Assembly (NCBI GenBank): GCA_003990765.1
Contig: RBNJ01000085.1
Location: 1-42,723, forward strand
Direction of reading: 5' to 3'
DNA length: 42,723 bases
DNA from: Jimgerdemannia flammicorona
Lineage: Eukaryota
A program made the position numbers and the translations under genes. Below the pieces are notes generated by a model. That model was not told the DNA's origin, ran no database searches, and saw only the letters and a program-made list of their open reading frames with translations. Positions 7,499-37,597 of the stretch are shown piece after piece (positions within the stretch are counted from its first letter, which is position 1; every line of letters starts with the position of its first letter).

Positions 7499-7948
7499 CT
7501 ATGCTTCAACCATCTGTATAGTCTTGTACTGCTCAATTTGCTGTATGACTGTTTCCCAATGATGTCTTCTTACTTTCTTGAAATCAGTGGGAGTTACTCC
7601 TCTCAGGTGGTCTATTGCTGGTTCATCTTCTTGGAATAACTTGTAGATCCTTTTGGTGATAGTGATCTGTGAGTAAGAGAGTTGGCACTCTGCGATCCAG
7701 TCTTCTTTGGTCTTTGCTGGATCCTGGTTGAGCACCTGTCCAAGCTTGAAGTACTCTTGGAACTCTGCCCAATGTTGGTAGGCACTAAAATGTGAGATCC
7801 GAGTGAGATGAGTCTGCACAATACTCTGAATACTATCATAACATTCCTCTATAGTCAGAGGTTTGGTGGTGCACTATTGTCTTTCAATAGCTCTTTGTGT
7901 AGTACTAGTGATCTTGAGTACCACTGCAGTACTCCGGTTATTGGCCAT
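7499..7948 (-). pseudogene. Accessory ORF of B, between integrase and PPT (about 150 codons, one internal TAG)
   Basis: ATG at 7948 overlaps the end of pol and is in frame with ORF 7499-7819 (QEYFKLGQVL...TKRIYKLFQEDEPAIDHLRGVT). Confidence 0.75.
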
Positions 7949-10900
7949 GGTACTTCTTGAGTCAGTTTTGGTGAATGGTGGTGGGGATTATTGTGTCTGA
8001 GGGCTTTTATAGTCAGAAAGTGGTCCCTTTTATATCTTGCACCAGGTAAGGTCCTTCCTATTTAGGCTCCAGTTTTTGTGACCAAGAAGCTTCTACCATA
8101 TTCTGATACACCAGGACTTCATCTCCTATCTTGATAATCTCCAGGGGCTTGTGGGTTTTTTCTGCATTGTTCTGTTGCAGTGCCTGTGCCTTGATTATGT
8201 AATCCTCTGCCTTTTTCCTGATCTGGTACAATCTCTGTATCTCTATGTCTACATGTTTCCAAATTGCATCATTACTTGCTGACAAACTTCCACCAGAACT
8301 TTCTTTGCTGAATAGCATTTCTCGTGGTGTAAAATGGGTGCTTTGTAATCATATGTCTCACAGAGTAGATAATGCTATTGGAAGATAGTGGTCCCAGTTT
8401 CCATATTCATCACAGATCTTGGCGATGATATTCTTGAGGGTCTTGTTGGTTCTCTCTGCTTGTCCATTTCCTTGTGGGTGATATGCAGTGGTCTTGATGT
8501 GTTGGATCTTGTACTTTTTGTAAAGAATCTCATGAAACTGGTTGACAAATTCTGTTCCTCTGTCTGTAGTAACTTGCTTCGGGGTTTTGAATTGGCAGAT
8601 GATTTCTCTGTATAAGAAATCGGCAATTGACTGTGCATTGACTTCCTTGAGTGGTCCAGCCTCTACCCATTTTGTAAACAGGTCTACTATTACAATGACA
8701 TATTGGTTGCCAGTCAATATCAGGGGTAGGGGGCCGATTACATCCATTGCAATGTGGGCAAATGGTATCAGTTTGATGTCTGCTGATCCAGGGGCTTGAT
8801 CTCATTGGTCTTGTTTCTGTTTCTGGCATTTGTCATAGGTCCTGACAAATTGTCTGATATCTTCCTCTATTCCAGGCCACCACAAGATTCTTCTCGCTTT
8901 GTTATAGGTGTTTGTTCCTCCTACATGACCTTGTTTATGTACCTCTTTCATCACTTGATTCTTCCAGTGCTTGGGGATGACTAATTGTTGTCCTTTCTTG
9001 AATATTTCTCCATCAGTTTCAAATTGTTTCCATGTCTAATTAATAATTGTTTTTGTCCATTCTTCCAGATGTGGGGGCATCTTTCGCTGCCCTAGGTAGC
9101 TGATGATTCCATAGTACAGCTCCTTATTCATGGTGATTTTGTGGGGGTGGGGTCCTTCGGGGTGTCCGTGAGAGGGCGTCAGCATTGGTATTGGTTCTTC
9201 CAGAGCGGTGGGTGATTGTAGCATCATATGCTTGCAGCTTTATGATCCATCAGGCATAGATTCCTTTGGGCTCACTTGTAGTGAGCAATCAGGTAAGTGC
9301 TGAGTAGTCTGTCTGGATGGTGAAGTGTCTTCCAGCCAGGTAGTAGTGGAACTTCTCTACAGCCCAGATGACAGCAAGGCATTCCAGCTTGTATGATTCA
9401 TAGGACTGCTCGGCTCCTCAAGTACCTCGGCTGAGATAAGCTACCATATATTCAGCACTATTCTTCTTTTGTGTAAGGACAGCTCCAAGTCCCATTGCAC
9501 TGGCATCTGTCTGCAGAATAAACTCTTGAGTCCAGTTGGGTCTTCTCAGTATTGGGGCCTGGGTCAATCTGGTCTTGAGCTCATCAAAGGCTAGTTGCTG
9601 CTGCTGAGTCCACTGGAACTTGACCTCTTTTCTGAACAGATCATAGATAGGACTGGCAATGTGGAAGAACCTTCTGATAAATCTTCTGTAGTAGGATACA
9701 AGTCCCATGAAGGCTCGGGCTTCAGTGATACTGATAGGTACTGGGTATGCTGCTACTGCTTTGATCTTTGTAGGATCTGTATGTGTTTCTTCACGGTTGA
9801 TAATGTGTCCAAGGTATGTGATTTCTTCTTCTCCAAACTTGCATTTCTTGGGCTTGATGTAGAGGCCATGTTTATAAAGCCTTCTGAGAATTTCCTCAAT
9901 GTGTTCCAAGTGCTCCTTGGCAGTTTGGCTGAAGATGATCACATTATCTACATATACCATCATCTATTTTTCTATAACATCCCTGAAGATACTGTTCATC
10001 ATTCGCTGGAAGCTTGCTGGTGCATTGCACATTCCAAAGGGCATGCGAAGATAGACATAGGTTCCATCAGGAGTAATGAAGGCTGATCTTTTGCTGGCTT
10101 CAGGTGTAAGGCCAATTTGGTAGAATCCTGAGAACAGATCCAGGGTAGTGTAGAATCATGATTCATTCCCCAGCATGATAAGAATATCACCAATATTGGG
10201 CAATAGTTGTCTGTCCTTCTCTGTGACCTCGTTGAGTCTTCTATAATCTGTGCAGAGTCTTGGTACAAACTCTCCTGGTCGGCTTCCTTTCTTTGGTACA
10301 AGGATGATAGAGAAGGACTAAGGGCTGCTAGCTTCTTCAATGATACCAGATTCCTCCATTTCCTTGATCTCTGTCTTGAGCCATTCTCTGTATGCTGGTG
10401 GAATGGAGCAGACCTTCTGATAGATTGGCTTTGCATCTCCAGTATTGACATCATGATAATACAAGGGTTTCTTAGTCTTGATATTCTTGAAATCTGTGAC
10501 CAGTACATCCTCCGATATATGCAAGAGGCTCTGCAATTCTTTCCTGAGGGGGAAGTTTCTTCTGATTGTGTAGGTGTGTTTGTCTTGGCTTTCCTCCTTC
10601 TTGTGCTCCAATTCGGTGATCTTAGTTGCTGTGAGGACTCCTCTTCCTGTAGAGCTGAATCCAGCTCTCCCTCACTGAGTTTGTCTGATGTTTGCAACCT
10701 CCTTGATTCTTGGATTAAGGACAGGTAGGATGAGCATTTGTGCCAGCTGATCTTTCTTTCTTACTTCAAATGAGATTGTTGGGTTGTGGTTCCTGGCAAG
10801 GAGAAGAATTTCTCCAGTATAATCCGAATCGATGACTCCTCCTTCTATAGATATTTCACTTTTCGCCAGGCTACTCCTTGTCTTAAGAATTCTGATATGG

Positions 10901-13110
10901 TTTGGTGGGATGGTTACTTCAATTCCTGTTCCTAGAATGGTAGTGGTCTGTGGTTCGAGTATTGTGTGTGTAGTAGTAGATAGGTCCATTTCAGTTGCAT
11001 TTTCCAACTTGTACTGTGGTATGACTGCATCAGGGCAAATCCTTCGTATCTTGACTATAATATCTTCATCCTCATCATTGCTGTCATCCAATAACTCTGA
11101 TGGTCCATCTTCTAGTTCCTCCTGGTTCTTCTTTGGCTTGTTGGTGATCTTCTTCACCTCAATGATACAAGAGTAGCAGTGATCCAAATGCTGAGCACAG
11201 TACATTCTTTCACCATAGGGACACCTTCCTAGTGGGGTATATCCATCTGTGATTCTTGTATACCATTCTTCCTCAGTCAATTGCTTGCCTTTTCCTTTCT
11301 TTGTAGTAACCATATAGGCTTCTTCTTCTTGGTCTTCCTCCATCTTGGGGCAGACTCCTTTGTGGACATTGATGGGAATTCTGATCTTCTTTCCCCGGTA
11401 GACAATCTACATCTTCTGTGCACTGAGGTCAATCATTGCCTTGGCTTTATGAAGCCATTAATTGCCAATGAGAATATCATAGTTGGTTGCATTGGTGACG
11501 ATGACATCCATAGGGATAGTGGCTTCGCCAAACTTGATTGGTACATCCCAAATTTTTCTCAAGGGTGTTGCTCATGTCCCATCAGCTGTGACAAACACCA
11601 ATTTGGTGGCTTCTTCTATCTCCCAACCTAGGCAGTCTACTGCTTTCTTGGTGATGAGACATCCTCCTACTCCTGTATCAATGATGGCTTCAAAGATCTG
11701 GTCCTCGATCTGGCAGGTAGCATAGGCTGATGTTTTCCAGTTATCTTCACTCTCTTCATCTGAATCTTCTTGTGCATTGTTGGCTTTAATTATTCTGTAA
11801 CCTTGGTCTTTGCCGATATCTGAGATTCCTGTCCTCATTTGTTGTCTGAAGGTTGGGATTTCTGCTAGTTGGCTGAAGGTTGCATTGACCTTTTGGTCCT
11901 TGAGGTCCTTGAAGATATCATACTTGAAGGTCTTGCTCTTGTGCAATTTCTGCTCCTTCTTCTCTTCACTTGATGGGGTGGTGTTTCTGATGATATCTTC
12001 TACTACTTGTTCAAGTTCAGCATCTTGTTCTAGCTCTATATCTTGATCAGCTTCGCTCTGCTGGTTCTCTTTTTCGATGACTGTTTCTGGTTGTCTTGTT
12101 TGTGTCTGGGCTTTCTTAGGAGGTCTGCCTGGAGGTCTTTTATAAGAACTGGATTGGACATCCTTCTTGCTTGAGGTGGCAGGGTAAGCTTCCCATTCCT
12201 CCCTCTCTTCCTCAGATTCTCCAATCTCCTCGAAGGTGATAGTGTTTGCTTGTTCGCAGTTCCTAGTTGTATTGCTTGGATTGGCCTTTCACTTGGTTTC
12301 TATCATACATTCAGAGGCATAATGGCCTTCTTCTCCACACCTGTAGCATGTTACTGATTGCCTGTCATTTGTGGCCACAAACTTTTGTACTGGCTTCTTC
12401 TTGAATTCTTTGACTATATCACTGAGGTGCACTGTCATTTCCACAAACTGCTTGGCCAGTTCCTCCATTGGGTCAACCCTTCTCTGGTCTTGTGATTGTA
12501 GTTGTTGTTGTGTATTCTAATTAACTATGGCAGCTGGGACTGTATTGATAATTCTTGATGCTTGTTCCATTTTTACTCCAGTTATCCTTTCCATTGTATG
12601 GCCTTGAGGGTGTCTGGCAGTCCAGTATCTTTGGGTGTAGGTAACCTTCTGTCCCAGGTCCAGTGATGTTGGGGTAGATTGAATGGCTAAAGCAATTTCT
12701 TGGTGAATGCCTTTCATGAAGGTATTCTTGGCCACTTGGTCTTGAACTGCATTGGGGTAGTCAGTAAGGACTATTTGATGTCAGATTCTTGTGTAGAATG
12801 TGTTTGGGTCTTCGGACATTCTTTGGCAGATAGTATTCAGTTGATCTTTGAGTACTTGTTTGATTTCATCTATATAGTAGATTACCCAGAGCCAGGCCTT
12901 GAAGGCCAGGATTCTTGCTGGATCATCAGCTCCTTGTACATTAGCTGTGGTAAATGCAGTTCTTGCTGGGCCTTGGAGGCTCACAGGGAGTAGGGCTACT
13001 TGTTATGCTGCCGATAAGGTTCTTATAGCAGCATACTGCTCGAAATCATCAATGAAGGTGATGATTGATTCATCAGAGGTATATCTATGGAATATGGGTG
13101 GTCTCATATC
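7938..13110 (-). pseudogene. pol: B gag-pol remnant
   Basis: CYRCGEEGHYASEC knuckle (~12310-12350); IIDTGVGGC protease; YVDNVIIF RT; LQTDASAMGLGAVL RNase H; DVIGP/TDRG/ERTN integrase DDE; GPY motif near 8050. Confidence 0.95.
10640..11060 (-). pseudogene. dut: dUTPase domain of B, between protease and RT
   Basis: MDLS...LGTGIEV...TRSSLA...GGVIDSDYTGEI...LAQMLI in ORF 10672-11343. Confidence 0.9.
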
Positions 13111-13212
13111 CATTCTGTCTGATTGTGTTGTGTGGGTTCTGGTTGTAGTTATTCGTTATTCAGCTTGAAAGTGAGGGATTCGTCTTGAATCATCAGCCAA
13201 TGGGCACTAAGT

Positions 13213-13678
13213 TGTAATATAGTGGATACTAAGATAGGCAAGTACATCAGATTTCTTTATCTTAAATTCTTGTCTTCTTGACTCCCAGAGTCAGTAGTTC
13301 CTTGAGGCCAAATGTGTTTAAAGAGGTAATCCCGAAGGTCCTTTTATTGGTATACTTGTTCTTTTTCTAACACTTTCAATCTGAGGTTTATTCACTCCAA
13401 GATACTGGGTTATTTATACAAGTTTGCTAGCTATGAGAGGGTGGCTAAGTAATAAATGAGTTATTTGGACTTTGTCGAAATATTTGGACAATGTCTAAAT
13501 GCTTTACTAAATTGTGACATTCAATTTGGATAATGTCTAAAAATTTAGACAATGTCTAAGAATTTAGATAATGTCGAAATCAAGGACTGCTAACTATAAG
13601 ACTATACTACTTTGGGAATGGGTGCAATCAAGTGTCTATTCCCTATTTCCTTCTTCCTAATTCAGCTATACTGTTACA
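13213..13678 (-). repeat. 5' LTR of B
   Basis: tgtaatatag...ctgttaca. Adjacent PBS-like tagtgcccat on the minus strand may be a decayed TGGCGCCCA (tRNA-Lys-like; uncertain). Confidence 0.95.
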
Positions 13679-14599
13679 CTATGAAATTGTTATAGTGTTA
13701 AAGGAATTATTATCTTCTGCTTTATTATTATTAAACTAGATTATATTGTAGATATCCTTCATAGTATATCTAACCTGGGGTATTTGCAAGATATAGTTGT
13801 TAGGGTATAGAAAGATTCTGTCTATAGTTTGAATATACTTGATATACTTGTGATTGAGTTCTTATATTATATTATCAATTTGACTATAGAATAGGGTGGT
13901 AATAATTTCAGCAGTAGTAACTTAGAGGTGAGAAATAAAGATACTGTACTTATAAAAGAGTTCTCAGTATTTATAAGCAATAAGTTTCTAGTATTGAGAC
14001 ATCTGAGTAATATCTGTATTATAGTAGTGTTTAACTATATCTTCTAGGAGATAGTTGATCTAGTAGTAGCTTGAGATTTGTCTGATTTAGTGAGCTTTAC
14101 TGAGTATATTCAGGTCATTTCATTGTGCTTCTATAAAGTAGAGAGGTACCAAACTATGGATATTCATAAAAGATAGGAGAGGTATAGCTTGATTGACAAT
14201 AACATTCTAAATATTAATATGAATGCAGTTGTAGATCTAAGTAATTATGGTTGAATATATATTTAAGAGTTGTAGTTATTTATTTAGTTTATTGTAGTTC
14301 TCTATTTTGATGTATCTGAGTACTTAGTATATATGCATTTAGTCTTAATTGTTAAGATTCTATTTATATAAATCTTGTATTCTATGACTTTGATTTGACT
14401 CAGTTTTGTACTTTGTAACTTCAGTTTGACTTAACTTTATGATCTTATATGTAATTTCTGAATTTATTTAGAGGGTGATGTGCAATTTTAGTAACTTGGA
14501 GGTTATATATTTATGTATAATTTAATTTAATTCAAATTAATTTGATTTATTTGGAAGTACTAGATAATATAAATAATTTTATTTATTGAGAATATAGAT

Positions 14600-15410
14600 T
14601 ATATTAGTTTTAAAAAAGTAATATCTTTGAATTCATTCTAGATAAATGGACAAATATTATAATAAAGTATTCTTGGTATTTCAATTTTATAGAAAAAAGT
14701 ACTAGTACTGAAAATAACAAAATTTTGATTTTTTTTTTATAATTTTTGAAGTTTTGTATTTACTACTTTTTAATAATTTAAATTCTTATAATAGACTATT
14801 TACAACTTCTCAAGTTTTGATCACACTATAATTAGAACTAATAAAAAGAAAATATTGAAACTTTTATAATATCTGTAAATATAAAACCAAAGAGTGGTAT
14901 TATTTTTGTTTTATTCATTTATATTATTATAAGTAATTTTTAAGTATCTTTTATCTTAGTTCAATTACTTAATTCTATTAAAGATCAGAATAAGTATACT
15001 ATTCAGATCTTTCTCAAGAAGTTTATTCTCATTTAGTATATAGTTAATTTACTCACATAATACTTTATCCTAGATATTAAATAAATGTACTTTGTAAGTA
15101 CTAAGATAATATACTTTACTGATCTGTTAATCTGAATAAGATATATAGCTATTTTGAGCTCAGTTATAACTATAATGAGTGGTAGCATCAATGCTATAAT
15201 ATTGAATCATAGTATTTATTAGTAATGAGTTTTTATTATTCTTCTACCAATTTGATATTTTTATTATAATAGTTTCTCTCTAGCTTAGCTTTGATAAGAT
15301 ATTCTTTATATCTCTTTAATAAATCTTAAATATAATAAAATTATATTCCAATATTATAAATAATAATATTATCAAGCTGATATTATTAGATTCATATCAC
15401 TAGTAAGGTT
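14600..15410 (-). pseudogene. Highly decayed DNA transposase relic, Sola-like / DUF7869-like
   Basis: Manual translation gives AKLERNYYN...THYSYN*AQN...KVHLFNI...INYILNE...KITYNN..*NKNNTTLWFY (a decayed DNxxGQNKN motif) and C-terminal ICPFI*NEFKDIT. Confidence 0.6.
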
Positions 15411-15413
15411 ATA

Positions 15414-16358
15414 TGTTAGAAAAATCAAGAATATTAGTGAGATCATAATGATTTTGCACTAATTTTGGTCCTCTTCAGCTGATTATATCATAGTAATCAT
15501 ACTAGTCTCTGTACTAGTTTAGTATATACTTATACTGATATTACTATAAAATATATCTCAAAAATAGACTAAGGATGCTAAAAATAGTACAAGACTAAAT
15601 TATATTATAGAATACTTAGAGAAAGAGTAAAGAGAAGAAGTAGTAATTATTTATTAATAGCTTATATACTTTTATATATATTGATGATATTTATAGGATG
15701 ATATAGTCAGACTATATCACTATATATTAAGTTGCTATAATTAAGATATTTCAACACTCCTACTCAATGAGATATATTTCAGAATATATAAATAGAAGAA
15801 CTAACTAATAATAACTAACTAAATACTATCTAGATAATTAAAAAAGATCAAAATTTCCTACTTATAAGTATAAAAATAGATTAAAAATATAGTAAAAAAC
15901 TAATAATATAGATTCAGATCTATTTACAAATAAAGAGATATAAGTAATGTTAGAAATATATATATATACTATATAAGATATAGTGAGAGACTTTTTAGTA
16001 CTTTGAAAAAACTTTCTATTATTACTTATATTATTATTATTATTTACTGCTTACTGATATATAGTTGATAAGTTTTATTTCTAGTATATATGTATAAGTC
16101 AAACTTTACTTTTAGAAGAGTTTTAGTTAATTAATCTGCTATTATACATATATATACTCTCTTAGAGTATATTTGAGATATATAGTACTATTTTTCATAC
16201 ATTCTTATATGAAATAATAGTATATATTAATATGTTTAATCTTTGCATAATATATATAATTCTTTACTATAGCAATCATATATTGATTATCTTATTGGAG
16301 TAGTATAGAGTACTCTTTCTGAAAAAATCTCAATTCTTTTAATAGTTTCTAAAGCTAT
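15414..16358 (-). mobile_element. Ty1/Copia relic: RNase H end, 3' UTR, PPT and probable 3' LTR (about 15414-15756)
   Basis: 16075-16355 translates to LLKEL...DNQYMIAIVKN...AKIKHINIYYYFI*EC...IIAD*LTKTL, a Copia RNase H. Minus strand gagtaggag-TGTTGAA at about 15750-15765 is a typical Copia PPT/LTR junction. Left LTR edge is tentative. Confidence 0.7.
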
Positions 16359-17924
16359 TATTATATAGTGGTCACTGAGTTTTTCAAATATATCAGATTC
16401 TCTTCAAGGTATATCTCTTAGACTAATTATAAGTTTTTTATAAGCAAGTTCTTATTGGAGTATCTTCCTAAGGTCTTATATTTCTCAAACTTCTTATCTT
16501 TAAACTATCTTATTATCTCTTAGATTGCTTATATATAATTGAGTGTAAGTGAACTGGAACTGACTTTATTTCAAAGAAAATAAGAGGAATATTTATATAA
16601 AATATAATTCAATAGTTACTAAGTTATAAAGCTAAATATAAATTCCAATAACTAAATAAAATACTGGAATACAGAAAACTATAGTTGTAAGTACAAATTC
16701 AAATATCTGTACAAATGGTTGCATAAGTTCAGGATGCTAGTAGATTTTGATAGTATAGAAAAAGGGTGCTTAAAGATTTAGGTGTTATAGAAAAAGAATA
16801 TTAGTAGAATTTAGTTACATAGAAAAAGGATGTCAGAAGATTTCAGTATTACCAAGAACTTAGAGCAGAATGTTCAGGACTATGGGGGCTTCATCTTCAT
16901 CACTGCTAGAGGTCAGAATGTTCTTGAATGAAATGAGGTCTACAAATGTTTTATCTATTTCATATATTTCATATATTATATAAGATGACATCATTTCATT
17001 TGGTGACAGAGAAAGCAAGAAGATCCAGGGCTCTCCAATCTATGACATTCTCTTCTACAAAATAAGAAACAAATGTGGAGTCTTGGAGAGGTCTAACCTG
17101 GATACTGGGGCCTTAGAATACTGAGATCAATTCTTATAGAAATTGATCAGAATTGTCCTTGAGAATGGGATTCCAGAACTCTCCTACCTCATCACCATTG
17201 AGAGTGATAGTGGACTGGGCTTCTGTGACCACTATGGCCTCTAGTGTATTAGTACAGCAGGCTGATAGTTTCTTAAAATCTGAGACTCTAGTATATGTAC
17301 TCTAAGTTGGGAATCAACCATAGTATATACCTAAAGACCTGATGAATCTTCTTAGCTGTCCTTATTTCATACATATCTATAGAAGTGACATCTTGAATCT
17401 CTTGGAGACTGGCCTGAGAGAATTTCCAGTAGAGGAGGTTTCCTATTTCATATTTATGCCATATCTAGAGACATTCAGTAGCAATGATAATTCTTGTTCC
17501 CATTTCATGGCAGTAGAGGATATAATGATAAGGGTCACCAGTACTTAGATTGAGGCTAGAAGTCCTTCTTGTATGGGTCCTCATGACTCTTCTGATGTCT
17601 TGGAATATTCTTTTCTGGACTGAGAGGTCTTAGTGGTTCCTGGACCTTGAGGTTTGGTGAGTAGTAGATATTTTATTTATAGTAAGTCTTTTGAACTATT
17701 TCTGTAAGCCTTGTTTGAGTTGCTGCTACTGCAGTTTCTTGATTCTTCTTTTATATTTCTCAAGATGTCAGTCTTATAGTCATAATAACTCATAGTTAGT
17801 TATTATTGCTCATCTTGTAGTCTGAGTGAGTCATATCATATGATCTTCTTATACTCTGATCTGGTGGCTTATAAGGAAAGGCTATCTCCTGTACTAATAT
17901 TATCATTCTGAGGTCACCATTATA
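16359..17924 (-). repeat. 3' LTR of C (about 1.57 kb) containing a decayed accessory ORF (about 16860-17670)
   Basis: Homologous to 36279-37838 and, inverted, to 18708-20260. Confidence 0.85.
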
Positions 17925-18707
17925 TCTTCCTCCTAAATAAGAATCTTCTCTTAAATATTCTTATTCATTGGTCCAGTCTGAAAAATTTGCTGATCCCATA
18001 ATCTCTGGCAGGGAGTTAAAAAGTGGTATTTATGGGCTGATATCTTCTTTATATATTTTGGTATGATGGTGAAGGGTCACTCCCTTCATATAGAGTAAGA
18101 GTCTGATTCTGATATTGATCAATTAGTTGATGGTTTGAACTCCTCTGGCTTTGAAAGTCTCATAGATAAGTAGTTACTGGTACTGTATCTCTTAGAGAAT
18201 GGTCCAGATAGATTATCTGCTAGTCATAAGATATACTGTTACAATTCATGGACTAGAACCTCATGGGTGATCATCACATTTTACTTCTCTTATATAGGTT
18301 CATAGTACTTCTTGAGTCTGTTCTTATATATTGTGGTAGGCAGTATGATCTCTGAAAGTTTTCTAAGCCAGAAGGTAGTTTTCTTGATATCTTATATGTA
18401 GAAGAGTTCTTCCTATTTGGGCTTCAGTTTTCATGACCATGAGACTTCTACTATATTTCAATACAGTAGAACCTTTTCTTCAATTTAGATAGGTTTTAGG
18501 GTCTTGTAATTCTTTTCTGTATTCTTTCTCATCAGTGCTTATGACTTGATGATATAATCTTCAGCCTTCTTTCTGATTTGGTATAGTCTCCAGATTTCTG
18601 AGTCAATCTATCTCTAAGTTAGATCTAGATTTATAGCTAAGATTCCATTAGAATCATCTTCTCCAAAGAGTAGTTCTCTTGGGGTAAAGTGTATACTCTG
18701 TGACTAT

Positions 18708-20260: not shown

Positions 20261-20635
20261 CTATAGATCTCATAAGACAGAGAGGGCAGTTAGGAGGTAG
20301 TTATCCCAATTGTCATATATGTCTGAGATCTTCACCAGGATGTTTTTGAGGGTCTTATTGATTCTTTCTATCTGTCTATTTCCTTGAGGGTAGTATATAG
20401 TGGTCTTGATATACTGAATCTTGTATTTCTGATATATTATCTCATGGAATCCATTGACAAATTCTGTACTACAGTCTGTAGTGATTTGTCTTAATGTCTT
20501 GTAGCAGTAGATGATTTCTCAGTATAAGAATTTGACTATAAAGAGAGTATTGGTATCTTGTAATACTCTTGCTTCTATCTATTTAGTAAAGAGGTTTATA
20601 ATAACTATAATATAGTAGTTTCCTGATAGTATTAC

Positions 20636-26100: not shown

Positions 26101-28900
26101 AGATAGCAAAGAGAGGGCATTTCTTGGCTAATTTCTTGAGTTGTAGCTTATTGATATGGGTGATCTTTGGTCCAGAGTCACTGGAGTTGAGTGGGTCCTT
26201 TTTATCTTACAGTTTGAAGTTATAGCATCCTTTCTTAAGGGTTAGAGAATGGTTTACCCAATTGATCATGGGGTTCTCTAGTTTCAACCATGAGGTTTCA
26301 AGAATGATCTTGTTGTCAGAAAGTGGTACAATTTGGAGGGTAACATGTACTCAATAGTCACCAATTCAAAAGGGCAGATTGTGGACTTCCTTACTAATGA
26401 CATATGAGGTTCCATCAGCTGTGGCAACTGCTTGAGTTTGTTGTACCAGAGAGGTGAAGACCTTGAGTCTGTTGGCTGTTTCTTTATTAATGAAGTTGCC
26501 TGAGGCACCACTGTCTATCATAATCTTGACAGATACTCGGTTGACAAAAGCTTTAAGTGTAAGCAATTTATCTGATCCAATAGTGGTGATTTCAGTTGTA
26601 GGAGCTTTCCTTCTGTTGGTTCTTCTTTAAGTCAGTTCATTGATACAAGAGAAGCAATCATCGATCATTCGGGAAGAGTACATTCTAATGCCATGGGGGC
26701 ATCAGCAACTTGGTACATATCTATCTTTGATTTTCTTATAGAATTGTTCTTCTTTATTCATGGTAGATTGGGCTGGGGCCTTGTTTGATGAACCAAATCC
26801 TTTGGATCCTCAGATGGTAGGCAGTAGTTCAGGGACTTCCTTGACTGTCAGGTTTGACTCAATTTTTTCAAATAGGATCTGGGCAATACAGAAACCAATA
26901 GGAATCTTGAAGGGTGTCCAACTGTGATTTCAGATGAGAACAATAATTTCGCCTGTATAATCTTTGTCAATGACTCTTCCTTCTACTGAGAGTCCTTTCA
27001 ATGCTAGGCTGCTGTGACAGCATATTCTTCCAATATGTCCTTCAGGAATTTGGATACTGATTCCTATATAGACTTGCTTGACTTCTCAGTTGGAAACTGT
27101 AGCTTCTTCGGCTGCATACAGGTCATATCCAGCTGCTTTTTGACTTCCTTTGGTTGGGGCCTTAGCAGTTTGTCTTAACTTGACAAAGTCCAGTGTTCTG
27201 GTGGTCGGATTATTGAGATTGTGCAGAGTGGTAACAGTTGCTCATATTGCTGTTTAGGGTTTTTAGTTAGGGCAGACACTGGCCATGTGTCTTGTCTTTT
27301 GGCAATAGAAGCATACTCCACTTCTTCAAAGTTCATTTCTTTCACCTTTGGTGAGTTTTTTGAAGGTACTTGGCTGTGTGGGTTCATGATTTCTGAGTGT
27401 CCAAGAGGTGGATGTAGAGAGAGCTCGGGATGCTTCATGCTTAGGTTCTTCTTTCTTGGTCCAAGTCTTTTCCTTGTTATTGAATTGTCTTCAAGGCAGA
27501 ATTGGTCCAGCTATTAAGATTCACTTAACCATAGTCTTGATTCTTGCTAGGCACCATTGTTGGTGATCGCAACCAACTGGGCAGCCTTGTTCTCAGATTT
27601 TTCTAGTAAGCTATTCAGGCAGGGCATTGAATAGATGGTCTGCTCTTGTACCATTTCGTGCTTCATCATTGGTGATATATCTTAGGCCAACAGTGTTCAG
27701 GAGTGACTTGAGTTTTGTACAGAAGGTTTCGAATTCTTCTTTGCCATATATATCAAATTTGAGGTTGCAGAGTTTTACTCAAGATTCAGCAATTATGGTT
27801 TCACTGTAGTATTGAGCAATCATGAGTTGTTTCAGTCCAGGGGCTGCAGGATGGGCTCCATATCCTGGGACATTATTTGCTGTATTCTGAGCAACTACTG
27901 TAGATCAGGTGTCCCATGTGAGGGGTTTTTCAGGAAGGGTTCACCACCATTCTTTGGCAGGTCCTTGGAAGAATATAACAACTCGGCAGATGTAGGCTGT
28001 GGTGGTAGCAAAGAGTTGTTCTAGAGTGTGGTCTTGATTGTTTGTCAGAACACAGTCAGCAACTTACTCATTGGTCCATTGATTGGCTTCAAAGTTAGTG
28101 TCAACTACACTAATAAAGCTTTGGACTTCTTGTGTAGTACCATTGAAGGTAGGTAGGCTCAGATTTTTGGTAGGTCAGGTCTGTTCCACCAAGGCAGTAA
28201 TGGTTGCTGCCATTATTGCTACCTGGGCTATAAGGTCTAGAATCTGTTGGTTCACTATGTTGTTTACTAAAGGTGGTTGGACTGCTGGTAGTGGTGTTAC
28301 TGGTACTACTTGAGGTACTGGTGCAGAGTGTGAGGGTATTCTTTGGGTCTGTGTAAGTTGTTGGAGTAATAGTTATAGGTCTGGAGTAAGGCCTTGATAG
28401 ATAGCTGTCTGTTGCTGTATAGGTGTATTCTGTCCTAATGGAGGTACGTCTCCTTCGGTGGTGTATCCGGGATTGAATTCACTGAGATACTCCTCCTCCT
28501 CTTTGGTTTGGTCCTCATATAGTTGGATTTGCTCAGCATCGAAGTAGAAAGAGTCAGTTGTATATCTGATTTCAGAAGGACTTAATTCAAAGTCAAGTTC
28601 TGGTTTGGTATTGGTTTCAGATTCCAGTAGAGCAGTAGCAGGACCTACTTCTGATTCAGGGTTAGGTAGTTGATGAAGAGTTTCTCTTGCTTCTTCCTTA
28701 AGGATATACCAGGCCTTGCTGTTCTGGAATTGATAGTATAATGCGGTCTTGGTCCTGGTATGGTAAAAGTCAGTAGAGTTGAGCCACTTGGCTACAGAGG
28801 CTTGAGCTTCATGAGGAACTAAGGTTAGAAAGACTGCTGCTGGTTGTCCTAGGTCACTCAGATTTGTAGAGCTGACAAAACTCTTGTTGAGAAGAGTAAA
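23130..28900 (-). pseudogene. pol: D gag-pol remnant
   Basis: CFYCQKTRHMASVC knuckle; IDSGASGNFI protease; FGLTNAPATFQ and YIDNILVF RT; TNASDLALGAVL RNase H; IHPVFNIQRLK integrase end; EEYKVEQILNK...YLVK chromodomain. The gag start is approximate. Confidence 0.93.
26790..27185 (-). pseudogene. dut: dUTPase domain of D, between Zn knuckle and protease
   Basis: Manual translation gives AAGYDLYA...IGISIQIP...HSSLA...VIDKDYTGEI...IAQILF...*GSKGFGSS, covering motifs 1-5. Confidence 0.92.
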
Positions 28901-29220
28901 GAAGGCTGCTATAAGACCTTCTTCATCTTGACTTGCTGGGTATAGAGCAAGGAGTTCAGTGAATAGGGTTTCACCTATTTGCTTATTTAACTGGAGTATT
29001 TCTTTTTTTGAATGAAGTTTGTCCCACTTGTTGCAGGTGTAGAGATCAAATTGTCCTTGTACATCAGGTTCAATTCTCTCCAGATTGTCAGATGATTCAG
29101 GATAAATTCCAGTTCAGAGGTTGGGCTTTATACCAACTTGTAGGAATTTGCAAAAGGGTTTGTAGTGGGGTGAGGAAGCATCTTGAAGTGAAATTGGATT
29201 GTAAACCACTACTACTAAGT

Positions 29221-31283
29221 TGTAAGAGAGTTATTTTTTAGGGTAACCATTATGTAGTTCTGGAAGGGTTTTCTAGAAGTTCTGGATATTCTGGAAGACT
29301 GTTTTCTTATGGTCAAGATCAATTTCATATGGAGTATGTCCTCTATGCTTATTGATTTCAAGATCAGATTGACATCTCAACCAAAGTTCTTTTTCGGACT
29401 AGTTCTGGATGTTCAGGATTTTCTGTATTTCAGGAAGTTCAAGAAACTAAGACCAGCTTAGTTGAATTGGCATATCACTGCAGATAATACCCAATTAGGA
29501 AATTTCATGATAGGGTTAGGAGTGGGACCTAATAGGGAGCAGATTTACTTAAGAGTGGTTTGTGGGTTATTAAATAGGTTTATTCGCTATTCATGATATT
29601 GCTATACTAGGAGTAGTTGTGTGAAGGAATATTGTGGAGAAGTGCTCAGGAGTTGTGTTCAGATTGTTCAAGTCTGAGATTCTGAGGTCTGGGGGAGGGG
29701 GTATTTATACTAGTAGAGGGCTATCTGGACTATGCTAGATATGGGTATAGTACTAAGTATCTTGCTGAGTCAGAATATAGTCATGTAGTACAAGAGTGAT
29801 CTGACATGTCAAGAGATCATCTGACTGCTGAGTCAGTTCACAGTCATGTCATACAGGGCTAATATAACTATACTATGACTGCTAGACTATTTATAGGTTT
29901 AGATACTATCTGGGTAGTCTTCGATGACATCACCATCAATTGCATCATCTCTGATGAAGTAGTCATCTGAAAGAGTGGTTCATGGATTACTTCTTCTTAT
30001 TCACTGAGGTAATAATATATTGGAACTTCATCACTATCTCATAGGATAGCATCATCTGTCTCATATGCTGGATAAGGTATTGGGGGGTAAAGGAGTGGTG
30101 CATCATCTTCGCTTTCATCAGTTTCGCTATCTGCATATCTTCTATAGGTTATGGCACTGTGAGTCATAGGGTTGTAGTAAGCTGGTGGCTGTAGTTCATG
30201 TCACTTATACTCAGGTGGTAGAGTGGTTGGTTCAATCTCGAGGGTTGTCTGAAAGTATAAGTTGTGTTCTCTGGTCTCTTCATTGTAGTTGAAGTAATCA
30301 GGAGTGAACACAGATTGGTATTCATGCCAGTGGTCATTGTCCCAATAAGTCTCATATGCAGTTATGAACTATTGTAAGTTCATCAGTAAGGTTGGCAGTG
30401 TGATCAGGGTTGGCAGGGATCCTTGGCTTGAGGTCATGTCAGCATCAGAGGGATTATTGTCTTCTGCTTTGTCTTCATCAAATTGGATTATATCATACAC
30501 ATCCTTCATAGTGTATCCAACTTGAGGCATTTGCAGAATATGGTCATTAGGGTGTGGGAAGGTTCTGTCTGTGGTCTGGATGTATTCTAGGTACTTGTGG
30601 TTGAGTTCTTGGATCATATCATCGATTTGGCCATAGGACAGGGTAGCCACCATTTTGCTAGTAGTAACTTGGAGGTGAGGAATAAAAGTGCGGTACTCAT
30701 AAAAGAGTTCTCTGTGTTTGTGGGCAATGAGCTTCTGGTGTTGAGACATCTGGATAATATCTGTATTATAGTGGTGTTCAACCATGTCTTCTAGGAGGTG
30801 ACCGATTTGGTAGTAGCTTGAGATTTGTCCAATCCAGTGTGCCTCGTTAAGCATGTTCAGGGCATTCCATTGGGCTTCTATGAAGTAGAGGGGTGCTAGA
30901 CTATGGATATTCATGAGGGGCAGAGGGGGTGTGGCTCAGTTGACAATGGCATTCCAAATGTCAATGCAGATGTGGTTATAGATCTCGGTAGTCATATTTG
31001 TGTGTTTGGAAGTTGTGGTTGTTTTTTGTTTTGATTCTTTGTTTCAACACATCTCAGTGCTCAGTATATATGCATTTGGTCCTGATTGGTAAGATTCTGT
31101 TTATGTGAATCTTGTGTTCTGTGACTTTGTGTTGACTCAGCTTTGTATGCTGTGACTTCAGTTTGACTTAGCTTCGTAATCATACAGGTGATTTCCAGAT
31201 TTGTTCAGAGGTCACATGTGATTTTGGTAGCTTATTCGGAGGGTGATATGTGATTTCTGTGGCTTGGAGGTTGTGTGCTTACA
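29221..31283 (-). repeat. 5' LTR of D
   Basis: Direct repeat of 20636-22702. PBS-like site at 29206-29220. Confidence 0.95.
29883..30995 (-). pseudogene. Accessory ORF in the 5' LTR of D
   Basis: Includes ORF 30369-30914 (SSYYQIGHLL...IAHKHRELFYEYRTFIPHLQVTT). Upstream in-frame ATG at 30995. Acidic, Pro/Tyr-rich tail. Confidence 0.75.
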
Positions 31284-31644
31284 ATTACTGGTAGTGATCT
31301 AATGATATCTATTGTAATGTAGTGGAAGGAGATAGGCTCAATTCTTGATGACCTAGGTATCTGGTCTTGCTGATCTTGTTTCTGTTTTTGATACTTATCA
31401 CACCCTTTGACAAATTGGTACAGGTCTTCTTCCATCTTAGGCTACTACATGATTCTTCTTACTTTGTCATATATATTGATTTCTCCTAGATATTCTTGTT
31501 CATATACTTTCTTCATTACTTGATACTTCTTATATTCAGGTATTATGAGCTTTTCTCCTTTTCTGAGTGTGATATTATCTAGTTTAAATTGTTTCCAAGT
31601 CCAGTTGATAATAGTGATAGTTCAGGGTTTGAGATAGTTGAGCA

Positions 31645-34600
31645 AAACTTATATCAGTATATTGGTGGAGATTGGTCATCCTCATATAGAGCAGAGGGTC
31701 TATTATCAGACTAACTAACTGAGAGAGATTTGAACCCAGCTAGTAGCTTCATTTCAGTAGACTTCTTGTTCATTAAATGTTCTGTTGGTTCTGGGGTCCC
31801 AAAGTAAACTTCTGATGTATAAGGTACTAGTCATTGCTGTAGGTTGTTGACAATTCAAGAAAGTCACTATAGGGATTAGATAATATATTTTGCCTCAAAG
31901 TCTTGGACTAGATCTTGAGAGTTCTTGAGGTTGGCCAGTGGTTCCTAGGTAGTATTATATTCAAAGTAGCTCATCCACTTGACTAGGTATTTGGAATAGT
32001 GGTAGTGGATTTGTTTGTCAAGGATTTTCTCAGCTTTGTACTTAATATAGTCTTTAATAATCATAGGGGCAGATAGCTTAGAAATTCAACTAGAGTAGAG
32101 CAATAACTGATTCCAGATCTTGAGGTGGGACATATTAAAGACTAGGTATACTCTCATAGTTTCAAGTAGCTTGAGGCAGTAGGAGGATATAGAGACTTGT
32201 TCAGTAATCTTGAAAGGTCCAATATACTTAGGTTAGAACTTATTCAAAGGGCAGTTGACTTGAGATTATATCTTGAGATTCTTGGTAGACAGTAGGACTT
32301 GATCTTCAATAGTGTAAGTAACATCATGATATTTCTTATCAGCATACTTGGCTTGATACTATTGAGTCTTCTGAAGATTCATAGTAGCAATCTTAAGTAG
32401 TTTGTTCATTTTGTCTGTAAGGCTCTTGATAGTAGAGACTTGTATTTGACTGTTTTTCTTAAAAGAGAATAGACTTGTAGGGGTCTTGGAATCTTGACCA
32501 TAGAGTAACCAGAAAGGAAAAATACCAATAGATGATTGGATAGCATTGTTGTATATAAACTCCATATAAGTTAGATAGTGGTCTCAATCATCTTGCTTAT
32601 AAGAAATATAGTTTCTAAGTATTTATTCTAGAGTTCTGTTCATATACTCAGATTGTCCATCAGTTTGTAGGTGGAAGATGGTAGATATAGTCAATTGGGT
32701 TCCCAGGGTCTTGAAGAGAGTTTGCCAGAAGTAACTGGTGAACTTGGGTCATAATCACTGACAATTACTCATGATAGGTCATAGTGATGAAAAATAGACT
32801 TAAAGAAGATTCTTGTAATCTCAGATATAGTAGCATTAGTAGTGGTTGGTTTAGTAACCATAGTCTTGGTCAGGTAGTCAACGAATACAATACTAGCATT
32901 AGCACTAGATTGAGTTTATGGTAGTTGAGTTATAAAGTTTATGGTAACTTGCTTAAATTTCTTAGTAGAAATTGGTAGTAGTTATAGCAAACTGGCAGGT
33001 ACTTAATTAGTAGACTTGTTGTACTGATATAGATTACAGCTGGCAATATAGTTCTTGATTTTCTTGACCATGCTTCACCAATAGTAGTGGCATTGGATGT
33101 TCTTGACAGTTTTTTTGATTCCCAGGTGATCAGTGAGAGGGGAGTTATAGTGTTTTTATAAAATCTTATAGCATAGGTTTATGTTTTCAGGTAGATAAAC
33201 TTAATCTTGATGATAGATCAGATTATTCTTGACAGTATATATATCCTTGAGCTCATTTGAGAAAACTCTAATAGTAACTATGTCTTCTTTGTAAGCTTAT
33301 CTGATTTGGTCTAGGATTTCTGATACTAGGGTAATCTGTATGATTGTGGTAAGGTCTGGGTATCTTGATAAGGTATCTGGTACTACAAGTGTCTTATCAG
33401 GCTTATAGATAATCATCAGATTGAAGGTTTGAAGCTTGAGGCTCCACTTAGCTTATAGATGTGATAGAGTAGGTTGAGTGTTGATATACTTGAGGGATTG
33501 ATGATCAGTGATGACATCAAACTCAATATCTTCTAGGTAGCATTATCAGTGGTCTAGTATATGTATTATTGCCAGTAGTTTCTTCTTATAGATGGCTAGC
33601 TTTTTTTTAGCTGGAGCCAACTTATGGGACTCAAAAGTAATAGAACAATGTTTTTTGCTATCATCTTGTAACAAGACTGCTCCAATGGCAAAATTCAATA
33701 CATCAGTAGTGACTATGAATTTTAGGCCTTGATTTGCATTATATAAGACTGGAGCATAGGTCAGGCAGTTCTTGAGTTCTTGAAAGGCTTATTGACAGAA
33801 GAGGTCCCAGATATAGGATACATAGTGGTCTGAGTACAGGGCATTCCTCATGAGGTTAGTCAGTGGCTCAGTAATACCAGAGAAATTTCTAACAAAGTAG
33901 CAGTAGTAGCCAGCTAGACTAAGGAAGAATCAGAGTTCTGTAAGATTCAACAGAATAGACCATTCTTCAATTGCTTCTATCTTGTATGGGTCTACTTGAA
34001 TTCCTTGTACAGAGATAATGTAGCCAAGATATTTGACTTATTCTTTGAAGAATTTACACTTCTTGAGCTTGGCATAAAGCTTGTATTTTTACAGGATCTC
34101 CAAGACTATTTGAATGTATTTGAGATATTCTTCTTTAGTTATACTAAAGATTAGAATATTGTTAAAATATACCAATAGGAAGATAAATAGTTGGTCCTTA
34201 AATATCTTATTTATCAGGGTCTGGAATGTGGCAGGTGCATTGGTGAGATCAAATGCTAAGACTAGGAATTCATAGAGTTCAAAGAGGGTCATGAATGTAG
34301 TTTTGGGAATATCTTCTGGCTTGATTTAGATCTGGTGATATCCTGACATAAGGTCCAACTTGGTGAAGTACTTGGCATTCTTGAGAGCATCAAAGATTTG
34401 ATCAATTAAAGGTAGCAGATAGTGGTTCTTGACAGTAAGCTTGTTGAGTACATGATAGTCTATATATATTTACAGAGTATCATCCTTCTTCTTGATGCAT
34501 AAAACTGATGAGCCATAAGGAGATTTACTTGGCTGAATGGCTTCTTATACAAGTAGTTCTTCTAGTTTCTTCTTGACTGCTTCAATTTTGAGTAGTGACA

Positions 34601-36278
34601 TATAGGTCATGTATTTCTTAAGTGATACAGCTCCTAAGATCAGTTTGATTTCATGATCAACTTCTCATATAGGTGATAGACCAGGTAGCTTGTCTGGAAA
34701 GACATCCTTGAATTCTTCTAGTAGTAACTTGATGCTTTCATTGACTGATAGTCTCTTGTCTTATTTCTTAGAACAGACTATTATAATAAAGGTATGCATT
34801 ACCTTCTTAAGTACTCTCTTATACTATATAGCTGACAGTATTGTAATCTGAATCTTACTTATGGTCTTGTCTGTCTTGATAGTGATATTGGCTCTATCTT
34901 AAAGTAAGGTGACTTCATTCTTATACCAATTGATGTCTGGATTGTATTTCATAAGTCAGGGTTTTTCTAGGATCAGATTATGATCTCTTAGTGGTGCAAT
35001 CTTAAAGTCTACTCATTCTCAATATTTCTGGATCTTGATAGATAGTTTGGTAGTAATTGACTCAATGGGGTACAGTATACCATCTGTGGTGACTATACTG
35101 TTATTCTTGAGTACAGGCTTGGTAAGGATCTTGAGGCTTTCAATGAAGTTCTGATTAATGAAGTTCCTTGCAACTCTGCTGTCTATGAGTACTTGAACTT
35201 CTTTTTCTTTGACTAGGTCTTTGAAAATGAGCATAGCTTGAGCTTTATTTTCACTAAGACTTACTGCTTGATCAGTACTACCAAAATATTTTTGATCTCA
35301 TTTTTTAGGGAGTTCTTGGACTTCTATAATCTTGAGTTAACTGGCTTTTTCTAGGATCATTTGCATGACTCAGTCTCCTTCCTTGACTATATAGTCTTGA
35401 TTCTTCTAGTTGATAAGCAGAACTTAAACTTGTCCTTGAAAGTCTGGGTCAATGATATCAGTACCTACATCTAAATAATATTTGACACTGAGTCCTGATT
35501 ATAGTATAATTCTGACATAATGTCCTTCAGGACATTGAACTGTAATTCCAGTAGGCACCAGAGTTTGGCTCTTAGCTAGAATAGTGACTTGTTCGACAGA
35601 GTATAGGTTAAGACCAATGACTTCTTTTGTTTAATATTGAGAGACCTGGGTCTTTGAATGAAGCTTTTTGATCTTGAGCTTGGATTGACTAGTAGTGAAA
35701 TTGACAGATGTGTCTTTGAACAATATAGTGACTGGTCTTGAAGGTTCACTAGTCTTCTTAGGATATTTGATTGCAATATATCCTATTTGATAATAGAAGA
35801 AACAGGCTCCAGATTTCTTCAGGTGGTCCTTTTCTTCAGGAGTAAGCTTGGTGTTCTTTTTATTCATAGTGTCTAAGTCTATTGGTGCCAGGTCAACTAT
35901 TCTTAATTGGTTCTTATGATAGTTCTCAAAGTAGTTCTTCTTGCAGTATTCTGGTTCAAAGCAGTTGCCAAAGATGATGATATCAAACCTATCAGTAATT
36001 CTCATGACTTCATTAAGGTTTTTGAGCTCTTCTAGCTCAATCTTGACTATGTGTTTCCCTTCAGACCTCAGACATAGCAGTCTATCTTTTTATCCTCAGA
36101 TATTGCTGATAGCTTGAGTAGAATTGACAAGAATTATATATTATAGCTTTATATAGACTTGAGTTGCTTGATGTTTGCTAGCTTATCTCTGGCTAGCTTA
36201 GTAGTATTAGCAGGCTTGAACTGCTTATTATAGGCTCTCTTGAAAGCTTTCCAGTCTCTGAATCATATATATGAGTAT
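31645..36278 (-). mobile_element. Second A-family copy (A2), internal region only
   Basis: Collinear with about 1505-6140, with the same dUTPase, PR, RT, RH, IN and chromodomain. No 3' LTR. gag is cut at 36278 by E. Confidence 0.92.
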
Positions 36279-36591
36279 TGTCACATAGTGGTTGCTGAGT
36301 CCTTCAAATATGCCAGATTCTCTTCAAGGTGTATCTCTTAGACTAACTCAAGTTATTATAAGCAAGTTCTTATTGGAGTGCCTTCCCAAGGTCTTATAGT
36401 CCTCAAACTTCTTATCTTTAACTGTCTTGTTATCTCTTAGATTGCTTGTAAGGAAGTATGTGTAAGTGAAACTGGAACTGACTTTATTTAAGAGGAAATA
36501 AGAGGGGTATTTATACAAAATATAATTCAATGGTTGCTAAGATATAAAGCTAAATATAAAATTCCAATAACTAAAACTACTAAGTTCCAGA

Positions 36592-36755
36592 GCTGGCATT
36601 ATTTAGTATCACATCAAAATGCTGGTGCTGGCATTATCCAGTGTTACATAAGAATACTGGTGCTGGTATTATTTAGTATCACATCAAAATGCTGGTACTG
36701 GTATTATCTAGTGTTATATGAGAATACTGGTGCTGGCATTATCCAGTGTAACACA
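36592..36755. repeat. 35-bp tandem repeat, about 4.7 copies, with two alternating variants
   Basis: gctggcattatttagtatcacatcaaaatgctggt alternates with gctggcattatccagtgttacataagaatactggt. Confidence 0.9.
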
Positions 36756-36759
36756 GAAC

Positions 36760-37597
36760 TTAGAGCAGAAAGTTCAGAACCATGGGAGCTTCATCCTCAT
36801 CATCATCATCACTGAAGGAGATGAGATCCATGAATTTGTCATGTAGGTCACGTATTTTGCATTCTTCACATACTTTGGGTATATCACACAGGATGATGTC
36901 ATCGCCAATGACATTATCACATTCAGCTGTGGCAGGAAAATCAGGAACAAGACCTGGAGCTCTCCAGTCTATGAGGTTCTCTTTCACAAAGTAGGGAACA
37001 AATGTGGGGTCTTGGGGAGGTCTGATCTGGATGCTTGGGCCTTGGAATACTGAGATCAATCCTTGCAGAAATTGGTCTGAGTTGTCCTGAAGGATAGGTT
37101 GCCAGAAGTCTTCTACTTCTTCACTGTTGAGGGTGATAGTGGACCAGGCTTCTGTAGCCACCCTGGCTTCTAGTGCATTGATATGGTGGGATGATAGGTC
37201 TCTGAAGTCTGAGACTCTGACATACTCCAAGTTGGAGATCGACTATAGTGCATGTCTGAAGATCTGATGGATCTTCTTAGCTGTTCTTGTTTCATATATA
37301 TCCATGGAAGTGGCATCTTGTAGCTCTTGGGTGCTGGCTTGTGGAAACTCCCAGCAGAGGAGGTTTCCTATTTCATACTCCTGCCATATTTAGAGGCATT
37401 CGGTAGCAATAGTGATCCTTGTTTCCATTTCACAGCAGTAGAGAATGAAGTGATAAGGGTCTGCAATACCCAGGTTGACACTAGGAGTCCTTCTCGAGCA
37501 GGTTCTCATGGCTCTTCTGATGTCTTAGAATATCCTTTCCTCAACTGAAATACCTTGGTGATTCCTTGACCTTGAGGTTTGGCAGGCAGCAGTCATT
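36760..37597 (-). pseudogene. Accessory ORF in the LTR of E
   Basis: ORF 36760-37230 plus upstream sequence homologous to 18949-19797. Confidence 0.78.

Follow-up and report, generated by a model that had tools for sequence, protein, structure and literature searches.

Fungal long terminal repeat (LTR) retrotransposons are usually described as carrying gag and pol only. The stretch of Jimgerdemannia flammicorona DNA analysed here (assembly GCA_003990765.1, contig RBNJ01000085.1, positions 1 to 42,723; hereafter the window, meaning the whole 42,723 nucleotides) raises the question of whether some of these elements have a third gene, and of what such a gene could do. Decayed LTR retrotransposons of the Gypsy (Ty3) group, almost all on the minus strand, form a nest in this 42.7-kb window, with a layout derived from Pfam scans of stop-to-stop frames plus self-blastn. 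A prediction made from its letters alone had proposed that three of the families in it (B, C/E and D) each carry a sense-strand open reading frame (ORF) downstream of pol, and that these ORFs have an unrecognised protein core in common. We find that the ORFs belong to a real, retrotransposon-borne accessory gene family without described relatives. As to its role we infer, with somewhat more belief than doubt, a trans-acting regulator or adaptor, most likely an activator or anti-repressor that acts on the LTR of the element itself.

Homology of the three ORF types

A hidden Markov model (HMM) of the family, searched against the six-frame translation of the window, finds only seven copies (one of B type, three of E type and three of D type), and all seven carry stop codons:

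7499-7948, minus strand: B-type ORF, 150 codons including the stop, with one internal stop where homologues have W
36763-37596, minus strand, with the stop at 36760-36762: E-type ORF inside the 3' LTR of element E, with three internal stops
18949-19797, plus strand: ORF of C', in a solo LTR, with three internal stops and a terminal stop
16863-17671, minus strand: ORF remnant of element C, E type, in a decayed 3' LTR
29883-30995, minus strand: D2 ORF in the 5' LTR of element D, 371 codons, with five stops and a frameshift near the end
21302-22414, minus strand: D1 ORF in the 3' LTR of the same element D, with ten stops including the terminal one
13658-14248 (N-terminal half) and 406-962 (C-terminal half), minus strand: D3 ORF in a split D-type LTR

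Element A, and the gag and pol genes of all elements in the window, gave no match in this search. A Gag- or capsid-derived ORF was rejected as a candidate, given that the HMM finds only these seven copies in the window and that no capsid family was matched in Pfam.

The peptides on which the original prediction was based are all present (seven of seven in the six-frame translation). Those of B lie at 7592-7681 and 7730-7759 and those of D at 30660-30749 and 30792-30821 and also at 22211-22240, all on the minus strand, and QEYEIGNLL occurs at 19162-19188 (plus) and 37357-37383 (minus). A few assignments need correction. The string MDIHKMRTAKKIHQIFRHVL*LIPNLEYVR is genuine in sequence and mislabelled as E, as it really comes from the plus-strand copy (19240-19329); the E ORF was given as 36760-37597, which is one base out of frame; and the D and C copies do contain ORFs, the two supposed D copies being the LTRs of one element and C being a solo LTR.

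At the DNA level there is no similarity between the B, C/E and D ORFs (self-blastn, E ≤ 1e-10), just as had been stated. Pairwise BLASTP of the ORF pieces in the window gives E = 0.024, 0.067-0.12 and 0.13, values that are too weak alone. Compared as profiles by hhalign, the B and E families align with E = 2.9e-4 over 102 columns, and an intact B-type homologue searched against the whole window by tblastn retrieves both better-preserved E-type ORFs (E = 0.004 and 0.006).

The place of the D type calls for closer scrutiny. Early profile comparisons for D, with 3-7 near-identical rows, gave E = 0.2 (A1 against A3) and E = 0.56 (A2 against A3), the register being nonetheless the same. These shallow values, together with the BLASTP results of 0.024 and 0.13, are what one could expect if D were unrelated to B and E, that is, if helical ORFs had converged and the window held two separate accessory genes; the enlarged B/E set, moreover, was retrieved with a profile that contained D. 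We nevertheless regard such convergence as very improbable. An HMM of B and E sequences, searched against the six-frame window, has the D core as its top non-self match, and the D2 N-terminus scores 16.4 bits, a value reached by none of 5000 shuffles (maximum 10.3). After diverse relatives had been added, hhalign aligned D with all others at a probability of 94.8% (E = 4.9e-8); against the 11 sequences that belong firmly to the B or E family, with two D-leaning ones removed, the values were 90.1% and E = 1.6e-6 over 139 collinear columns. The controls fail, with E = 0.46 for the reversed D profile and E = 0.025 for the best of 100 column shuffles. Bridging sequences score on more than one single-family profile (P0023 with 24 bits on B and 34 on E; P0025 with 21 on E and 23 on D), and MAFFT set D in the same register unguided.

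By these comparisons, the three ORF types have one homologous N-terminal domain of about 135-140 amino acids, and the common protein core that had been proposed is thus upheld by profile-profile alignment once relatives are added. The C-terminal tails are not homologous; between the D and E types, hhalign finds only E = 0.35 over 10 columns.

Relatives, coding constraint and decay

The family is rare. An exhaustive HMMER search with the joint alignment retrieves just 14 proteins at E ≤ 0.001 among 1.84 billion representatives, including P0018, which has an intact D-type N-terminus, and several divergent members. In a word-indexed database we found one D-type relative (P0002, 61% identity over residues 115-342), five E-type relatives (58-76% identity) and six B-type relatives (65-78% identity). 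These database relatives are gene-caller proteins on short contigs of 600-3003 nucleotides. Where the window copies have stop codons, the intact relatives have W or Q, and at 41-79% identity their frames of 128-342 codons are open. Their starts are conserved (MANN in five of seven B-family rows, MP in P0008, P0019 and P0020, MTTEIYN in P0018), as is the end of the E type (LNFLL in P0007-P0009, LNILL in P0010).

The differences between repeat copies in the window are almost all transitions. Transitions account for 198 of 202 differences between the two LTRs of element D and for 674 of 706 between the two copies of element A (1506-6141 against 31645-36278), and CpA<->TpA and TpG<->TpA contexts dominate among the differences of the D LTRs, the B LTRs and the A copies. 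This spectrum resembles that of repeat-induced point mutation (RIP) and would point to an ascomycete-type genome defence rather than to Glomeromycota. The suggested resemblance to many uncharacterised Glomeromycota proteins is not supported, as only the 14 representatives were found, without taxa, and the RIP-like spectrum seems to point elsewhere.

RIP yields transitions only, and transversions were therefore used for the selection test. Between D2 and D3, which are independent insertions, transversions fall 7/4/21 on the three codon positions (p = 4e-4), and half of them, 16 of 32, are synonymous where 13.9% would be expected (p = 1.3e-6). In each of the three E-type pairs, gaps are about twofold less frequent within the ORF than elsewhere in the LTR. 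The distribution of transitions over codon positions was not accepted as a sign of selection, for the LTR pair of a single element, which diverged only after insertion and has just 2 transversions, shows the same depletion at position 2 (47/24/50). The E-type window copies, on the other hand, have no excess of synonymous transversions (3/30, 10/51 and 9/37). The selection that had been proposed from retention across lineages is thus supported in part, by the D2-D3 comparison and by the open frames of the relatives, and finds no signal in the three E-type copies of the window.

Could the frames be non-functional, having arisen by chance in long LTRs or been captured from the host without serving the element? 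That all seven window copies carry stops, that the E-type copies lack a synonymous excess and that the database relatives are gene-caller output on contigs of 600-3003 nucleotides would agree with such an interpretation. We would be greatly surprised if it were correct. It would have to account for long frames without interruption at 41-79% identity, whose starts and ends are conserved, for the synonymous excess between D2 and D3, for one domain kept in three element families whose reverse transcriptases are down to 33% identical, and for the confidence with which AlphaFold models that domain.

Position of the gene in the elements and in the nest

The second question is where the accessory gene lies relative to pol, the polypurine tract (PPT) and the LTRs. 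The elements and their landmarks are as follows:

963-6981: element A, with a second copy, without LTRs, at 31645-36278
6983-13678, minus strand: element B, a complete Gypsy element with gag CCHC, protease (PR), dUTPase, reverse transcriptase (RT), RNase H and integrase (IN)
6983-7449 and 13212-13678: LTRs of element B, 467 bp each, differing at 31 of 467 sites
about 7451-7459: PPT of element B, AGGAGGAAG
20636-31283, minus strand: element D, a complete chromovirus with PR, RT, RNase H, IN SH3 and Chromo
20636-22702 (3') and 29221-31283 (5'): LTRs of element D, 2.07 kb, with ends TGTAAG...CTTACA
22704-22716: PPT of element D, AAGAAGGAGAGAG, abutting the 3' LTR
268-962 and 13694-14497: pieces of a third D-type LTR that elements A and B split when they inserted
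36279 to the window end, minus strand: element E, its 5' LTR lying beyond the window
36279-37838, minus strand: 3' LTR of element E, about 1.55-1.56 kb, TGTAAT...TGTGACA
37839-37848: PPT of element E, AGGAGAAAGA, directly upstream of the 3' LTR, with TGTAAT coming next
36592-36753, minus strand: 35-nt repeat, 4.6 units, directly after the stop of the E ORF and upstream of TATAAA and AATAAA
16356-18707, 20260-20637 and 31285-31640: element C, a broken relative of E
16356-17924, minus strand: 3' LTR of element C, E type, heavily decayed, with a PPT-like site at 17922-17937
18708-20260, plus strand: C', a solo E-type LTR of about 1.55 kb, inverted, in the integrase region of element C

All three families had been said to carry the ORF 3' of pol. 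This is true of B, in which the gene stands between pol and the PPT, the order being the end of pol, the ORF, the PPT and a short 467-bp LTR. The B pol ends in LKKYHGQ with a TAA at 7938-7940, and the ATG of the ORF (7946-7948, in ACCATGG), which is in another frame, overlaps both the TAA and the final three pol codons. Such an overlap hints at coupled translation or at a compact sub-genomic arrangement. In D and C/E, by contrast, the ORF lies downstream of the PPT, inside an enlarged LTR. It starts about 289 nt into the LTR in D (LTR positions about 289-1401); in E, about 242 nt of the LTR precede the ORF and about 480 nt follow it. As a consequence, both LTRs and every solo LTR of these two types carry a copy of the gene.

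That these are genuine LTRs is indicated for element D by TG..CA direct repeats containing the ORF, an abutting PPT and a target duplication, the 5-bp GTAAT that flanks the element on both sides and whose intact target is visible in element E. The two D LTRs differ at 202 of 2063 sites (90% identity). For the E type the evidence is an ORF copy downstream of the PPT plus the solo copy C', which has the same ends as the E LTR and a target overlap of about 5 bp (E-equivalent 38606-38610); no LTR pair on one element is present in the window. B and E have about 45 nt in common around the PPT; relative to this homologous landmark, then, the same gene is upstream in B and downstream in E. A second PPT-like site, which might explain how the ORF moved across the LTR border, was not found beyond the three expected sites, there being 6 matches against 2.5 expected by chance.

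Within the E-type LTR, the 35-nt repeats follow the ORF, and the solo LTR C' has 2 copies of the unit (19808-19878); we take them to be putative enhancer-like U3 repeats. The pair of TATAAA and AATAAA, 27 nt apart, also comes after the E-type ORF, and these two motifs occur in the B LTR as well, with a spacing of 26 nt. Because both the repeats and this pair follow the ORF, the layout suggests that the ORF lies in an expanded U3. One could go further and suppose that in two unrelated Gypsy lineages the LTR has turned into a gene complete in itself, its ORF accompanied by a promoter, enhancer repeats and a poly(A) signal and encoding a regulator whose fold has no relative that could be detected. 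All LTRs, even solo ones, would on this view supply from dispersed sites a factor acting in trans, to the service or the policing of the element family, and the cassette would have been moved between lineages and across the PPT by recombination. We offer this only tentatively and consider it rather unlikely.

Element D has a Chromo domain after SH3_Tf2-1 (34.7 bits, cut-off 25.1), and no Chromo match was found in B or E in any of three frames, although decay could mask one. B and E have a dUTPase between protease and RT (64.8 and 61.1 bits; 10675-11406 and 40636-41423, minus strand), and the E RT is 65% identical to that of B, 33% to that of D and 35% to that of A. The proposed presence of one family in both chromovirus and non-chromovirus lineages is thereby supported. 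For the dUTPase, the same place between PR and RT is described in PMC2864245 for a few fungal Gypsy elements, PosPlaTy3-5 being the one named.

These positions also bear on whether the protein might help the particle or the pre-integration complex, in nuclear import, reverse transcription or the choice of integration site, by contacting Gag, integrase or chromatin, with the tail binding histones. The start of the B ORF on the stop of pol would link its translation to the integrase end, and with no chromodomain detected in B and E, some other targeting device is plausible. Element D, however, has a chromodomain as well as the accessory gene, the gene is separated from pol and lies beyond the PPT in both D and E, and the family HMM does not match gag or pol of any element in the window. 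We therefore think a particle helper improbable.

Other features of the nest deserve mention. Element A has SH3_Tf2-1 at 40.2 bits and Chromo at 23.2 against the Pfam cut-off of 25.1 (1413-2891, minus strand). It is probably also a chromovirus, yet it is without the accessory gene. A and B are two different complete elements that stand back to back inside one split D-type LTR (962/963, 6981-6983, 13678-13694), whose pieces overlap by just about 5-6 bp, as if there had been a single insertion; 15 nt (13679-13693) could not be assigned to any element. The LTR-less copy of A (31645-36278) is bordered by a fragment of C and, at the opposite side, by the exact end of the E LTR (31640-31645, 36276-36281), which suggests deletion or recombination rather than normal insertion. 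The region 14498-16355 (about 1.9 kb, GC 21-24%) has no frame of at least 70 codons and no similarity to the other elements, and is probably a repeat mutated past recognition. Just inside the 5' LTRs of D and B, the sequence starts with ACTTAGT... (29180-29220 and 13170-13211, minus strand), and element A (6570-6608, minus strand) has the related CTTGATAGTAGTAGTG, with TAGTAGTAGTG in common with D; none of these sequences of A, B and D starts with a canonical TGG primer-binding site. In the 5' LTR of D, moreover, 2.2 copies of a 31-nt unit precede the start of the ORF (31112-31178, minus strand, LTR positions about 106-172).

Possible function and comparison with known systems

What kind of protein does the gene encode? 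Conserved landmarks of the N-terminal domain are [IF]xx[DE][IV]xxA, Y-x-[IL]-G-x-x-L, A-[KR]-[KR]-I-[HY]-x-[IL]-F and I-x-x-L-x-x-V. An AlphaFold2 model of the E-type protein P0008, built on 20 sequences, has a block-mean predicted local distance difference test (pLDDT) of 65-95 over residues 11-160 and of about 90 over residues 61-150; confidence is low beyond, with pLDDT 47-70 over residues 160-220 and below 50 over residues 220-271. The model has seven helices (18-31, 47-83, 89-95, 100-113, 117-122, 128-132 and 136-150), and the domain is confidently predicted to be all-helical. In this model Y-x-I-G-x-x-L closes the long helix and A-K-K-I-H-x-I-F forms the helix 100-113, which follows a 7-residue helix and a 4-residue turn; we read this core as resembling a helix-turn-helix (HTH). 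The I-x2-DI-x2-A segment that had been singled out in D and E corresponds to helix 1 of the domain and recurs in the relatives. For the B-type protein P0012 (14 sequences), the AlphaFold2 model is unusable, with a mean pLDDT of 53 and a best Foldseek match in PDB at E = 0.48.

The domain is near neutral, with a net charge of -8 to +2. The tails of the D type, the E type and several relatives are strongly acidic, rich in hydrophobic and aromatic residues and modelled with low confidence; those of the D and E types have net charges of -16 to -32, and the B type has no tail. No transmembrane segment was found in any of 12 proteins, the maximum Kyte-Doolittle mean over 19 residues being at most 1.47 (threshold 1.6). 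A helical core without a transmembrane segment, and not a classical Env, had been anticipated, and both AlphaFold2 and hydropathy agree with it. A retroviral or errantiviral Env was rejected for lack of a transmembrane segment and of a Pfam match and in view of a model that is all-helical and soluble-looking.

Searches for known families likewise support the claim that the family had gone unrecognised. Pfam returned no family at E ≤ 10 for 6 proteins and only three sporadic single-member matches among 13 members; one member matched HTH_Tnp_Mu_2 at E = 0.031. Sequence profiles of PDB gave nothing but one chance-level match (L-asparaginase, E = 0.12), and Foldseek of P0008 against the viral folds of BFVD had no match at E ≤ 0.001 (best E = 0.15).

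Taken together, a helical N-terminal domain followed by a very acidic tail is compatible with an activator. In our proposal, the protein would be neither enzymatic nor structural and would act in trans for its element: the N-terminal domain would bind a target, either a nucleic acid or a protein, and in the types that have one the acidic tail would bring in host machinery, a mode of action that may be like that of the 3'-terminal regulatory genes of complex retroviruses.

Several findings weigh against this proposal. The B type lacks the acidic tail, and a mechanism based on an activation domain is therefore not common to all members. A near-neutral domain is untypical for a nucleic-acid binder. 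Foldseek of P0008 against PDB had no match at E ≤ 0.001 (best E = 0.27) and no significant HTH, and the HTH-like leads from a protein atlas (HTH_3, DUF3102, DUF433) scored at most 0.87 or had a TM value below 0.5, the other matches being mixed hypothetical clusters. To these can be added the E-type window copies without a synonymous excess. As for the LTR, both long LTRs also have TATA-like motifs ahead of the ORF, at a distance of about 75-90 nt, and the ORF could thus lie in R; the local alignment of the B and E LTRs scores 35-40, inside the shuffle range (mean 33, maximum 52), which does not fix the layout. With such motifs upstream and with B and E LTRs that are not alignable, the placement in U3 should be read as suggested by the repeats and signals that follow the ORF.

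A different interpretation of the same features is that the protein is a counter-defence factor, directed against RNA interference or quelling, heterochromatin or DNA methylation, or RIP-type mutation in the host, with the helical domain binding a host protein and the tail serving as decoy or recruiter. Its action would then be comparable to that of VANC in VANDAL transposons or of lentiviral accessory proteins. The gene evolves far faster than pol (65% identity between the B and E RTs, about 24-26% between their ORFs), which fits an arms race; the tails are non-homologous between lineages; the host mutates its repeats, as the 198 transitions among 202 D-LTR differences and their CpA/TpA contexts indicate; and a near-neutral domain is no less suited to binding proteins than to binding DNA. 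It must be set against this that there is no known host partner, that the Pfam, PDB-fold and BFVD searches gave no match to known suppressors, and that all seven window copies have themselves been inactivated. We regard counter-defence as possible, and rank it a close second to an activator or anti-repressor of the LTR.

Whichever of these roles applies, the significance of the family lies in a conserved, fast-evolving third gene in both chromovirus and non-chromovirus lineages, absorbed in two of them into LTRs of 1.5-2 kb. It may be the fungal counterpart to the regulatory genes of complex retroviruses. The HMM and the confident domain model provide a handle on how elements control their expression or evade defence, on why some fungal LTRs are long and on whether solo LTRs stay active as genes. 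Annotators should be aware, too, that members of this family labelled 'hypothetical proteins' are encoded by transposons.

Extra ORFs in LTR retrotransposons are already known as a kind; the accessory family itself is without a described relative. Our word-matching searches found no paper that describes it, and Repbase entries or subscription journals may still hold it. Among retroviruses, mouse mammary tumour virus (MMTV) has its sag ORF inside the U3 of the LTR, and Sag is a type II membrane glycoprotein. Here as there, the ORF lies wholly in a greatly enlarged LTR, is duplicated at both ends of the provirus and stands at the 3' end of the RNA. The likeness ends with this location, as the accessory proteins have no transmembrane segment and no consistent Pfam family and belong to fungal Gypsy elements rather than to a retrovirus. 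Foamy-virus Tas/Bel1, Tax, Bet and Nef are products of 3'-terminal regulatory genes of complex retroviruses. With this group the family has in common a gene downstream of pol and near or overlapping U3, and a putative Tas-like combination, in the D and E types, of a folded N-terminal domain and an acidic C-terminal part; it differs in having no Pfam match and no BFVD fold match (best E = 0.15), and in its B type without an acidic tail. VANC proteins are the anti-silencing proteins of Arabidopsis VANDAL elements, which are plant DNA transposons. They too are fast-evolving accessory proteins, encoded by a transposon and dispensable for catalysis, though of a plant DNA transposon.

Closer to the elements studied here, PMC2864245 (2010) depicts, for some fungal Gypsy elements, an 'additional ORF with unknown function'. 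The likeness of this extra ORF to the accessory gene is one of description, the paper giving no sequence or family for a comparison. The Botrytis element Boty has the gene brtn (as cited in the accessible text of PMC8365987), which is antisense, whereas the accessory ORFs of the window are sense. For bdelloid rotifers, the available text of PMC5408684 describes ORF3 genes common to diverse, unrelated LTR retroelements, and lineages some of which encode a dUTPase. The rotifer ORF3 products reported there are recognisable proteins (Env-like, GDSL esterase, DEDDy exonuclease); the family described here, by contrast, matches nothing known, and in two of its lineages it resides inside the LTR.

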